Sequence record: NC_014792.1 | Direction: 5' to 3' (one strand) | Length of the DNA stretch: 64,000 nt | Source of the DNA: Escherichia phage vB_EcoM_VR7 | Shown: positions 1,711 to 27,082 of the stretch, one piece after another | How the letters are laid out: the number at the start of each line of letters is the position of its first letter | Numbering within the stretch: the stretch's first letter is position 1 | Notes under the pieces: generated by a model | The model's database searches: none | Seen by the model: the letters and a program-made list of their open reading frames with translations, nothing else | What the model was told of the DNA's origin: nothing | Translations under genes and position numbers: made by a program

Positions 1711-1990
1711 GCCTTGCGGCAACCTTGTCGGGGTTCCACCTGCTAGGCAAGTGTTTGTACGAAACGCCGGGATTCGAACCAGGTTATTAAGTAGTTGACG
1801 CTACTAAATATTTTTAAAAGGCCATATCTCGACCATATCCGAACGTTCCGTCAAAAACGCTACTCGGCTTACGGCAAAGATATTTCCTCGAATCGTTAAT
1901 TAGGTGCGCCGTTTCAGCTGTGATATAAGGGGTCATTAACAAAACATAAAGATTTATTAATGCCGGTCCTTAAACAGGGAACATCAGTCC
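1711..1990 (-). ncRNA. Candidate small stable RNA region downstream of the tRNAs (possible counterpart of T4 species 1/2 RNAs)
   Basis: About 280 nt with no ORF between a protein gene and a terminator, in a tRNA operon; minus strand has a T-loop-like GGTTCGAATCC motif and a possible 7-bp acceptor-like pairing (CGGAACG/CGTTTCG), but no canonical cloverleaf could be folded by eye. Confidence 0.3.
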
Positions 1991-1996
1991 GACGAC

Positions 1997-2551
1997 TTAC
2001 CGGTAGCGACCCGGTTTCTTGTTTGGTATTTCAAATTGCGTAGATTTAGTATCTAATTTTTTAACTATGGAACTTATGTCATGAAAGAAAAACCATTCAC
2101 CATTTATATGGTCCTGATTATAAATGGTGTGCATATATTTTTCAAGTTCTACTGCATCCTGGGAATATCTAAATGATACTATTTTAAAACTTTTAAAAGG
2201 TGAAAATGTATTTGCTGCTATAGCTCTAACATCGGGTTCTATACTTCTTCCTATTTTATAATAATTAGGATTTGTAGTGTCTACCATTATGTATACAAAA
2301 GCTTGTCGATAACTTTTTTCTATATCGAATTCATCTTTAAATTTCAATAGATTTAGAGCAGCCGTTCTACAAAATATTCCCCATATCGACGAGCGTTTAG
2401 CTTCGGTCATCGAAAAGAATTTTTTCTTATCTATGATTTTAAGAAAAGCCACCTTTTCAATTAGTTCTTGTGTTATTTCAAAATTACCATGGTATATTAA
2501 TCCAGCTTTTATAGCCAAATTAATTTGGTCCCAGTCTACATCACTTCTCAT
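1997..2551 (-). CDS. T5orf172 / GIY-YIG-superfamily domain protein (184 aa) in the tRNA island; possible homing-endonuclease-like nuclease
   Basis: C-terminal half carries FVYIMV...NYYKIGRS...R...E...NGEWFFF, resembling the GIY-YIG/T5orf172 signature; occupies the position where T4 has segB in its tRNA cluster. Confidence 0.5.
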   Translation of the reverse strand: MRSDVDWDQINLAIKAGLIYHGNFEITQELIEKVAFLKIIDKKKFFSMTEAKRSSIWGIFCRTAALNLLKFKDEFDIEKSYRQAFVYIMVDTTNPNYYKIGRSIEPDVRAIAANTFSPFKSFKIVSFRYSQDAVELEKYMHTIYNQDHINGEWFFFHDISSIVKKLDTKSTQFEIPNKKPGRYR

Positions 2552-2570
2552 AATATTATTCTCATTAATT

Positions 2571-2647
2571 TGGTCGGGGTGAAAGGATTCTAACCTTTAA
2601 CCTGCGGTTTAGAGGACCGCTACTCTATACAATTGAGTTACACCCCG
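2571..2647 (-). tRNA. tRNA-Arg (anticodon UCU)
   Basis: Minus strand folds as a cloverleaf: acceptor CGGGGTG/CACCCCG, D-stem ACTC/GAGT, anticodon stem GCGGT/ACCGC with loop CCTCTAA (TCT), T-stem AAAGG/CCTTT, encoded 3' CCA. Confidence 0.8.
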
Positions 2648-2651
2648 TGTT

Positions 2652-2726
2652 TGGTGGCCCTTGCTGGTTTCGATCCAGCTACCTATCAGTTATGAGCTGA
2701 CAGCTCTCCCATTGAGCTAAAGGGCC
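2652..2726 (-). tRNA. tRNA with CAU anticodon (Met, or Ile if lysidine-modified)
   Basis: Minus strand cloverleaf: acceptor GGCCCTT/AAGGGCC, D-stem GCTC/GAGC, anticodon stem GTCAG/CTGAT with loop CTCATAA, T-stem GCTGG/CCAGC, encoded CCA. Confidence 0.85.
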
Positions 2727-2733
2727 TTAATTA

Positions 2734-3153
2734 TTAACTTGACCATCCCCAACCTTCGGAAGGACCATCGTAGTGTACACAAATATCAGGTGAAATATTA
2801 AAATTGGCTTCGTCCGAAGAAAAAACACCCAACTTTTTACCAAACTCACTGAAGCAGAATTGTTCGCCGCCCGGAGCCCAAACATCTTCAAATAAAACAG
2901 TGAATAGCCAGCCAGCAATTAAATCTGCATCAAATTCTGTTACACCTGAACACATTTCATATAACTCGTCATCACAGACTGTAGCCACGATATGGGCCAA
3001 ATGACTTTCAGATTTTAACCAGATGCGAATTAAATTACCATCAAAACAATTGTAGTTAATTTCGGATGGCTGGCAGTTATAAAATACTTCTGTAGCGATT
3101 TCTGGATTTTCCCAAGTTTCGTCGTTAAAATTGATAAGAATAGGAGTAATCAT
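2734..3153 (-). CDS. Hypothetical acidic protein (139 aa)
   Basis: ORF track; GAGGA RBS; D/E-rich with few K/R. Confidence 0.5.
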   Translation of the reverse strand: MITPILINFNDETWENPEIATEVFYNCQPSEINYNCFDGNLIRIWLKSESHLAHIVATVCDDELYEMCSGVTEFDADLIAGWLFTVLFEDVWAPGGEQFCFSEFGKKLGVFSSDEANFNISPDICVHYDGPSEGWGWSS

Positions 3154-3265
3154 ATTTTCCTCATTAGTTGATTATTCTATTATGAAAGGCTCTTTGAGGG
3201 AAGAACCTTTGGTAATAGAGGGTACTTATTAATAATAACACACAACTCTTAAAGCATATTACTTG

Positions 3266-3649
3266 TTAACCTTCATCAACAATAGTGTGGGTGTTGGCAT
3301 TAACAATCTGCCACCAGTCAAAACGGGTTAGAACCATAACATGGTTGTTTTCATTTTCTTTAATAATATCACGCAGTTCATCTTCAGTCGCAGCTTTTGC
3401 AATTAAATCTGCATAACCGCCCCGGGGATAATAGCTATCGCCAGCAAAGAGTAAAAAGTTTGTTTTGATATTCTTGAATTCTTCAAGAGTAATAACCGTT
3501 CCAGATGGTTGTTGAACAATATCTACGTAACTATATCCTAATTTCTGGGCATTATCTACCGCTTCAAGCAGGGTGTCATGTGCCCACCCAATTTGACATT
3601 CTGGTTTGTCAGATGGGTTTGCCTGATAATCCGCATACACTTTATACAT
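3266..3649 (-). CDS. Hypothetical protein (128 aa)
   Basis: ORF track 3266..3697 trimmed to the ATG at 3649 with RBS; start abuts the stop of the upstream small ORF. Confidence 0.45.
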   Translation of the reverse strand: MYKVYADYQANPSDKPECQIGWAHDTLLEAVDNAQKLGYSYVDIVQQPSGTVITLEEFKNIKTNFLLFAGDSYYPRGGYADLIAKAATEDELRDIIKENENNHVMVLTRFDWWQIVNANTHTIVDEG

Positions 3650-3650
3650 T

Positions 3651-3836
3651 TTACTCACCTTTAGACATTTTATCCATAACGAAAGAGATTGAACCAATTA
3701 AGAATGCAACTACTAAAGAGATTATATTCTCAGAAGTTGAAAGCATATTCAACATAAAGCCAGCAAACATGCTAAAACCAAAAGCGGTAACAGCAACAAG
3801 GGCAGTAACATTTCTAATTAATTCGCAACGTTTCAT
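3651..3836 (-). CDS. Hypothetical small membrane protein (61 aa)
   Basis: ORF track; hydrophobic segments; own promoter cassette upstream. Confidence 0.4.
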   Translation of the reverse strand: MKRCELIRNVTALVAVTAFGFSMFAGFMLNMLSTSENIISLVVAFLIGSISFVMDKMSKGE

Positions 3837-3864
3837 TTTATTCTCCTCATTAGTTGATGGGATA

Positions 3865-26297: not shown

Positions 26298-27082
26298 TGG
26301 CTACATATGACGCGAACTTATTCGCCCGGCTCGAAGACGGGACCGGGTATGACAATACCAATGCTACAGAGATATTGAACCCTTATGTAAACTTTATGCA
26401 TCATGAAAATACCCAGACTTTAGCCGATGCTATTGTTGCTGAAAGTATTCAGATGCGCGGAATGTCTCTCTATTACATCCCAAGACAATTCGTTAAACCA
26501 GATTTGTTATTCGGTGAAGACCTCCAGAGTAAATTTGATAAAGCATGGAAATTTGCTGGTTATCTGGATACGTTCGATGCATATCAGGGTGATGGTTCTA
26601 TCTTCAGTAAATTTGGCATGACTGTGAACGATGAAATCACAGTGTCGATTAACCCTAATCTGTTTAAACATCAATGCAACGGCACCGAACCTATTGCAGG
26701 GGATTTGATTTATTTCCCTCTCGATAACAGTCTGTTCGAAATAACCTGGGTACAGCCTTATGACCCGTTCTATCAGGTAGGTCAAAACGCCATCCGTAAA
26801 ATCACCGCGAGCAAATACATTTACTCCGGAGAAGAGCTTAAACCTGAATTGCAACGAAATGAAGGTATTAATATTCCAGAATTCAGTGAGCTCGATTTGC
26901 AACCAATCCACAATATCGATGGCCTTACAGATATCAGTGATATCCCTTATGCTGAATCCGATGAGATTAACGCAGAAGCAGCTGAATATGTTAAACCATA
27001 TTTTGTGCAGAATGGCCGTGGACTTGAGTCACCGCCTAAGGCAAAACAGGATAGCTTTGACGATAGTTTCTTTGATGAATAA
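26297..27082 (+). CDS. 14: gp14 neck protein
   Basis: 261 aa; synteny. Confidence 0.85.

Follow-up and report, generated by a model that had tools for sequence, protein, structure and literature searches.

A T5orf172-type ORF in the tRNA region of Escherichia phage vB_EcoM_VR7, a putative homing-type endonuclease of tRNA arrays

The tRNA region of Escherichia phage vB_EcoM_VR7 (NC_014792.1) contains an ORF of 184 aa, located between a tRNA-Arg gene and a homologue of the T4 RNA gene rnaD, that is best explained as a putative free-standing homing-type endonuclease specialised for tRNA arrays, an analogue but not a homologue of T4 SegB. A probability of about 0.6 is assigned to this reading. 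The encoded protein would be a two-domain, site-specific DNA endonuclease from the T5orf172 branch of the GIY-YIG superfamily. The analysis covered a window of 64,000 nt, the first 6 kb of which are 97% identical to phage VR26 across 81% of their length (T4-like, Gaprivervirus group). An initial annotation had offered two readings of the ORF, a distinct mobile nuclease in the niche of segB or a tRNA-associated nuclease. The former is now the best-supported one, given the lack of similarity to SegB, the precise presence or absence of the ORF in related phages, and its exchange between genera.

Coding status and domain architecture of the ORF

The ORF covers positions 1997..2551 on the minus strand of the window (ORF list, Pfam, PHROG) and starts with an ATG codon 19 nt past the CCA end of tRNA-Arg(UCU). 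The 19-nt leader in between (2552..2570, minus strand; AATTAATGAGAATAATATT) carries a Shine-Dalgarno-like GAGA and is kept among homologues of T4-like and T5-like phages, as seen from the junction sequences. The initial annotation had described a 184-aa frame adjoining tRNA-Arg with three short motifs, and all three were located within it: FVYIMV (aa 85-90), NYYKIGRS (aa 96-103), and NGEWFFF (aa 150-156). Judged by its sequence, the ORF represents a genuine gene subject to purifying selection and not a chance frame, because a 555-nt open frame is found in DNA of 31% GC (41% for the window), full-length homologues are present in other T4-like phages (53-95% identity) and in T5-like phages (28-40%), and dN/dS amounts to 0.11-0.13 (~0.12) for three orthologues (teqskov, ESCO10, and ESh27).

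A near-consensus sigma-70-like promoter match (TTGAAA-17 nt-TATAAT, 11/12) is located within the ORF at 2117-2145 on the minus strand, where it overlaps the codons of the E137-H141 motif and is oriented towards rnaD and rnaC. It might allow the RNAs downstream to be expressed again after insertion, or the match might have arisen by chance in AT-rich coding sequence. A second tblastn match in the window (26484-26846; 25% identity, E = 9e-4) lies within a 261-aa ORF among structural genes and was rejected as spurious.

The relationship to T5orf172 and GIY-YIG proteins, proposed in the initial annotation with profile searches named beforehand as the refuting test, was borne out by a Pfam search. 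Both MUG113 (PF13455; 34.7 bits, gathering cut-off 22.3) and T5orf172 (PF10544; 26.7 bits, gathering cut-off 20) match aa 85-155, and the precomputed domains of all close homologues are the same two. MUG113 and T5orf172 belong to the GIY-YIG superfamily (PMC8263062). In PHROGs, the protein matches phrog_5032 (function unknown) over its full length (E = 5.5e-59); NCBIfam contains no match for it. In an AlphaFold2 model (pLDDT 90.8, based on a 13-sequence alignment), aa 7-73 form an N-terminal domain of four helices and aa 84-169 a C-terminal domain with the arrangement beta-beta-alpha-beta-alpha. The core of the latter has the alpha/beta topology of the GIY-YIG type, and the structural neighbours of the model are GIY-YIG nucleases. 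A Foldseek search against the PDB returned nothing below E = 0.3, with GIY-YIG proteins as the best-ranked entries. A profile search of all PDB sequences yielded nothing at E <= 10, and hhalign found no relationship between the family profile and the I-TevI catalytic domain (probability 0.3%).

The predicted GIY-YIG-like catalytic domain comprises codons 84-170 (2042..2302, minus strand), starts with the elements beta-beta-alpha-beta-alpha, and contains Y87, K99-I100-G101, R109, E137, H141, and E152. Apart from Met1, the residues Y87, K99, G101, R109, P118, E137, and E152 are invariant in 35 full-length relatives with 20-57% identity. All of them except P118 lie in signature motifs, i.e., the GIY-like strand, the K-I-G strand, the helix-1 Arg, the helix-2 Glu, and the Glu of EWF. 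The catalytic motif set of T5orf172/MUG113 domains (Tyr in strand 1, (Y/K)-I-G in strand 2, Arg in helix 1, and Glu in helix 2) is thus present. The helix-1 His/Tyr that is usual in GIY-YIG enzymes (PMC8263062) is absent from the 184-aa protein and likewise from Odn (ICP1 Gp88). Among T5orf172 enzymes, DNA cleavage has been demonstrated for Odn alone, and its E180A variant loses cleavage in vitro and in vivo (PMC8263062). E180 of Odn, in 'TEQRIH', aligns with E137 in 'LEKYMH', in an Odn-to-profile alignment that is weak (4 bits).

The N-terminal domain (codons 1-78; 2318..2551, minus strand) consists of four helices (7-15, 28-37, 42-47, and 50-73) and is presumed to serve target recognition. 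Modeled in isolation, it adopts a confident, all-helical fold (pLDDT 92). Its conserved motifs are F-x-I-T-x-x-L and (R/K)xAALNLLK(F/Y)K. The N-terminal ~90 residues had initially been called unassigned. This holds insofar as ~80 residues have no significant structural or profile neighbour and match no known DNA-binding fold, but they form a conserved four-helix domain that is common to T5p067 of phage T5 (see below). A Pfam match of this domain to Castor1_N (16 bits, cut-off 26.5) was dismissed as noise. CxxC...CxC zinc-finger or CapR repeats were not found; the whole protein contains a single Cys and the N-terminal domain is all-helical. Among the PADLOC defence models, PD-Lambda-1 and PDC-S57 gave 21 and 13.7 bits, respectively, for aa 82-173, without a full-length match to these models of 212-496 positions. 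As these matches are at the domain level only, the protein is not considered a member of a defence system.

T5p067 and the position of the family within tRNA arrays

A word-indexed protein search returned 16 relatives of the ORF; an exhaustive HMMER search was required for the wider family. A scan of IMG/VR yielded three loci, all of which are already known from GenBank phages. One relative is of particular relevance for the name of the family. In the record of the T5 tRNA region (AY734508), T5p067 is a 172-aa ORF between tRNA-Cys and tRNA-Asn that matches the Pfam model T5orf172 along its full length, and very probably it is the 'ORF172' behind the name of that model. T5p067 is homologous to the ORF of the window over the full length (29% identity over 160 aa, E = 3e-15) and to the profile of its family (E = 1.5e-22, N-terminal domain included), and its two domains are arranged in the same way, with the AAL..(I/L)KFK helix also present at the N-terminus. 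Since the homology spans the N-terminal domain as well, the ORF of the window is a relative of the probable eponymous ORF172 and not a mere carrier of the domain. The niche is the same as well, with T5p067 beginning 21 nt downstream of tRNA-Cys and extending 24 nt into tRNA-Asn. The two differ in their flanking tRNAs and in the phage family (Demerecviridae for T5p067, Straboviridae for the window ORF).

To characterize the niche, ARAGORN was run on 17 distinct public phage records with a homologue. In 16 of them, the homologue is located in a tRNA array and on the tRNA strand; only Vibrio phage 1.063.O differs, with no tRNA within 2.5 kb of the homologue. At least ten tRNA contexts were found (Arg|rnaD, Met|ORF150c, Arg|Thr, Arg|CDS, Tyr|Lys, Cys|Asn, x|Lys, x|Arg, Tyr|Asn, and Asn|Asp), and two further homologues from metagenomes start 17-18 nt after a tRNA-Arg. 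Where a tRNA is located directly upstream, the ORF starts 15-23 nt past its CCA, and most of these loci share the leader ccaA(A)TTTA..ATGAGA(A/G), in T4-like and T5-like phages alike. The association with tRNAs is not universal, as indicated by Vibrio phage 1.063.O and by P0015, a more distant aquatic relative that adjoins an HNH gene and has no tRNA on its short contigs.

The 3' end of the ORF usually falls within the RNA gene that follows. Of ten loci where a tRNA follows closely, nine have a frame that lacks its own stop codon and reads 10-39 nt into that tRNA; in four loci, the stop is the TAG of tRNA positions 8-10. Translations of tRNA D-arms were found as C-terminal peptides in three further database relatives (0/1129 in control windows), in a scan of 165 C-terminal tails that cannot see the common class of 10-nt overlaps.

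In the window, the ORF ends in the homologue of rnaD (T4 species 2 RNA; 1903..2022, minus strand), its final eight codons and TAA stop corresponding to the first 26 nt of that gene. The homologue of rnaC (T4 species 1 RNA; 1758..1896, minus strand) follows, with a hairpin and a T-run after it. Both were assigned from the T4 annotation by coordinate mapping and are ~91% identical to T4; the rnaC homologue has no match to an Rfam family. What had been labelled a downstream non-coding region is therefore correctly located after the ORF, but it is not anonymous and is overlapped by the end of the ORF. On the other side, tRNA-Arg(UCU) (2571..2647) and tRNA-Met(CAU) (2652..2726), the upstream neighbour transcribed in the same direction, are both encoded on the minus strand (ARAGORN and Rfam). 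They are the only two tRNA genes in the window, so the earlier term 'tRNA island' is generous, but the locus is nonetheless the T-even tRNA region.

The tRNA-Arg(UCU) is atypical in several respects. Position 33 of tRNAs is near-universally U. Here, the anticodon loop reads CCUCUAA with C at position 33, the T-loop (GGTTAGAATCC) has A at the expected C56, and the D-loop (AATTGTATA) lacks the GG18/19 pair. The oddities of the D-loop and T-loop may represent a U19:A56 covariation. The same allele is found in VR26, ESCO10, and teqskov, while ATK47 combines the same T-loop with U33. The motif GGTTCRANTCC has been reported as essential for SegB recognition (PMC2330249). Both tRNA genes of the window depart from it (tRNA-Met, GGATCGAAACC; tRNA-Arg, GGTTAGAATCC), and these T-loop deviations could constitute an escape from SegB-like nucleases.

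Further variation was observed in the surrounding genes. VR26 lacks the equivalent of positions 1756-2018 of the window, a stretch that nearly coincides with rnaC plus rnaD, by which its ORF is extended by a junk tail to a product of 219 aa. In ESCO10, the missing stretch is 1756-1899 and nearly coincides with rnaC. Relatives have therefore lost these small stable RNA genes cleanly and independently. An ORF of 139 aa without Pfam family (2734-3153, minus strand) is located directly upstream of tRNA-Met in the same block; it is missing from VR25 and 95% identical in the Dhakavirus ESCO10. In the ESCO10 record (OM386655.1), the T5orf172 ORF is annotated as 'head vertex protein' and its small neighbours as prohead, portal, and terminase proteins, an annotation that looks frame-shifted or mis-transferred at this locus.

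Empty sites, exchange between genera, and alternative explanations

Among ~770 T-even records that share the tRNA-Arg/rnaC flanks, ~17 (~2%) carry the ORF. The carriers belong to the genera Gaprivervirus, Dhakavirus, Tequatrovirus, and Mosigvirus. A comparison of the locus in related phages, suggested in the initial annotation, revealed both empty and filled sites: the ORF is present at the precise tRNA-Arg|rnaD junction in the window, VR26, ESCO10, and teqskov, and absent from VR25 and T4. The empty site of T4 (...GGGATACCA-A-ATGAGAAACCGGG) passes from tRNA-Arg to rnaD, and in VR25, a phage of the same genus, tRNA-Arg ending in ...ACCA is directly followed by rnaD (...CTCGACCAAACAAGAAGCCGGG). 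In the window, the filled left junction is tRNA-Arg...ACCAAATTAATGAGAATAATATT-ATG and the filled right junction is ...GAAATACCAAACAAGAAACCGGG. From these sequences it follows that the cassette is bracketed by the repeat ACCAAA(T/C)...GA(G)AA, with its right edge at the position of the tRNA 3' ACCA. This right boundary is the ACCA at 2024..2027 (minus strand), within the codons of I175-P176, which aligns with the tRNA-Arg 3' ACCA of the empty sites in T4 and VR25.

The segment without a counterpart in VR25 is larger (2028..3267). It includes the ORF, tRNA-Arg, tRNA-Met, and the 139-aa ORF, approximates the exchanged module, and is flanked by sequences with 97-98% identity between the two phages. 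ESCO10 (Dhakavirus) is 95% identical to the window at 1900-3846, compared to 68-76% in structural genes. In teqskov (Tequatrovirus), positions 1681-2648 are matched at 93.8%, compared to 65-71% in structural genes and <=81% in other nearby segments; the informative part of this match is the ORF with tRNA-Arg, because rnaC and rnaD are ~91% conserved even in T4. The tRNA-Arg allele adjoining the ORF is 99-100% identical in VR26, ESCO10, and teqskov, but only 41% identical to the T4 tRNA-Arg. Taken together, these alignments show that the segment has crossed genus boundaries, by lateral spread with co-conversion of flanking DNA. A stricter version, in which tRNA-Arg and the ORF always form one mobile unit, was rejected: the homologues in KpV477 and PS2 follow a T4-type tRNA-Arg and that of ESh27 a tRNA-Met. 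The linkage is limited to copies with at least 94% identity.

The same tRNA-Arg|rnaD slot is occupied by unrelated ORFs in other phages, namely gp150 of SP18 (79 aa; 3565-3804) and ORF150c of RB69 and ATK47 (114 aa; 2839-3183 in ATK47). Each starts a few nt past the tRNA ACCA and abuts the 5' end of rnaD, and neither has a Pfam match or a nuclease signature. In ESh27, ORF150c (2340-2684) is found in tandem with the T5orf172 ORF. With two unrelated ORFs in this slot, the junction is a general insertion hot spot. Presence and absence alone are therefore no proof that the ORF mobilises itself, as the pattern could reflect the general plasticity of a hyperplastic region.

This plasticity is the basis of a rather unlikely alternative, in which the ORF is passive accessory cargo with an active or inactive nuclease fold, shuffled by ordinary recombination at the short repeats of tRNA 3' ends rather than by its own cleavage, and perhaps of benefit to the phage, e.g., by attack on host or competitor DNA. 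The occurrence of three unrelated ORFs at the very same junction in different phages fits such a scenario, as does the rarity of the ORF in T-even records (~2%). The direct repeat ACCAAAT..GAGAA around the cassette could support homologous exchange, and it is the whole block 2028-3267 that differs from VR25, not the ORF alone. However, homing is precisely a process in which flanking DNA is transferred along with the gene, and passive cargo explains neither the invariant catalytic residues nor why the subfamily is restricted to tRNA arrays across at least ten contexts and two phage families.

The invariant residues likewise bear on a domesticated DNA-binding or regulatory protein, e.g., one that controls expression of the tRNA region and has kept the T5orf172 fold for binding, in the manner of CapR-type derivatives. 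UniProt and InterPro label the domain 'Orf172 DNA-binding', and there is a documented case in which a relative of T5orf172 homing genes was domesticated (bioRxiv 10.1101/2020.11.28.402263). In that case, however, CapR retained the DNA-binding module and lost the T5orf172 domain (bioRxiv 10.1101/2020.11.28.402263), whereas the ORF of the window retains this domain with all motif residues invariant, including the equivalent of Odn E180, which makes domestication improbable. An RNA-directed enzyme acting on tRNAs or their precursors in processing, repair, or attack on host tRNAs, to which the second reading of the initial annotation would amount, is highly improbable. The observation in its favor is location, i.e., the fixed place in tRNA operons, but most T-even phages process the same tRNAs without the ORF, and every characterised enzyme among the structural neighbours and relatives acts as a DNA nuclease (SLX1, I-TevI, UvrC, EndoII, PD-T4-3, and Odn).

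Under the preferred reading as a homing-type endonuclease, the ORF would be part of the tRNA precursor transcript, with translation starting from the conserved GAGA leader. Its helical N-terminal domain would bind DNA at some feature of tRNA genes or of the junctions in tRNA arrays, and the C-terminal domain would cut the cassette-less alleles of co-infecting relatives. Repair would then copy the ORF together with the adjacent tRNA-Arg allele. By analogy, this would be the mechanism shown for SegB, reached by a non-homologous protein.

A wider and more speculative proposal, which probably goes too far, is that the subfamily with helical N-terminal domain and T5orf172 domain forms a dedicated lineage of tRNA-array endonucleases in T4-like and T5-like phages, recognising the DNA of tRNA genes or junctions and driving the exchange, replacement, or amplification of tRNA cassettes as a convergent counterpart of SegB, and that it is combined with a stop-codon throttle. 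Maturation of the downstream tRNA or rnaD by RNase P would remove the stop codon of the ORF. As the stop is located inside the downstream RNA, each transcript would yield either the mature RNA or the full-length nuclease, which is proposed to act as a throttle on a potentially toxic enzyme.

Comparison with known systems

If the reading as a homing-type endonuclease is true, SegB and the T5-ORF172 type, as unrelated nuclease lineages, compete for the T-even tRNA region, and the founding member of T5orf172 falls in a subfamily with a clear target niche, tRNA arrays. A second family of tRNA-array nucleases would be a plausible driver of the turnover of tRNA repertoires in T4-like and T5-like phages, because phage tRNA genes counter tRNA-cleaving host defences and SegB-driven amplification has been demonstrated (PMC13096335). 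In addition, genes labelled 'hypothetical protein' (or, in ESCO10, 'head vertex protein') could be renamed as putative homing endonucleases of the T5orf172 family.

The closest functional parallel is SegB of T4, also a free-standing nuclease-type gene among tRNA genes, at the same locus and with the fold of the same superfamily. SegB cuts the tRNA genes of relatives via a T-loop motif and thereby causes the tRNA region to be preferentially inherited (PMC2330249). It is statistically associated with tRNAs and amplifies tRNA genes, which leads to escape from tRNA-cleaving defences (PMC13096335). There is no detectable sequence similarity between the two proteins (BLASTP E = 0.72). SegB matches PF01541/SegE-type Pfam models, whereas the ORF of the window has no match to PF01541 and hence does not belong to the Seg family. 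The slots differ as well, SegB being located between tRNA-Ile and tRNA-Arg and the ORF between tRNA-Arg and rnaD, and the segB frame is closed by a stop codon of its own before the following tRNA, in contrast to the ORF that ends within rnaD.

Odn shares the T5orf172 motif set with the ORF. In contrast, its N-terminal domain is derived from RepA_N, its target is the replication origin of a satellite, and it is an anti-parasite weapon rather than a resident of tRNA arrays.

The status of homing endonuclease genes has been assigned to T5orf172 genes of ICP1 and T5-like phages (PMC10448857). These putative homing genes resemble the ORF in the family of the catalytic domain, the patchy distribution, and the location at boundaries of genetic exchange. 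According to Barth et al. (2023, PMC10448857), they mostly carry CapR, DUF723, or DUF4397 zinc-finger repeats and are clustered around the genes for terminase, RNR, and capsid proteins. The protein of the window, in contrast to the ICP1-type genes, has a Cys-poor helical domain and occupies a tRNA-array niche. T4 has been stated to have no T5orf172 gene (PMC10448857). As the published T5orf172 work thus describes none in T4 and mostly genes in the vicinity of terminase, RNR, and capsid genes, a subfamily confined to tRNA arrays of T-even relatives extends present knowledge modestly and is not a new kind of system.
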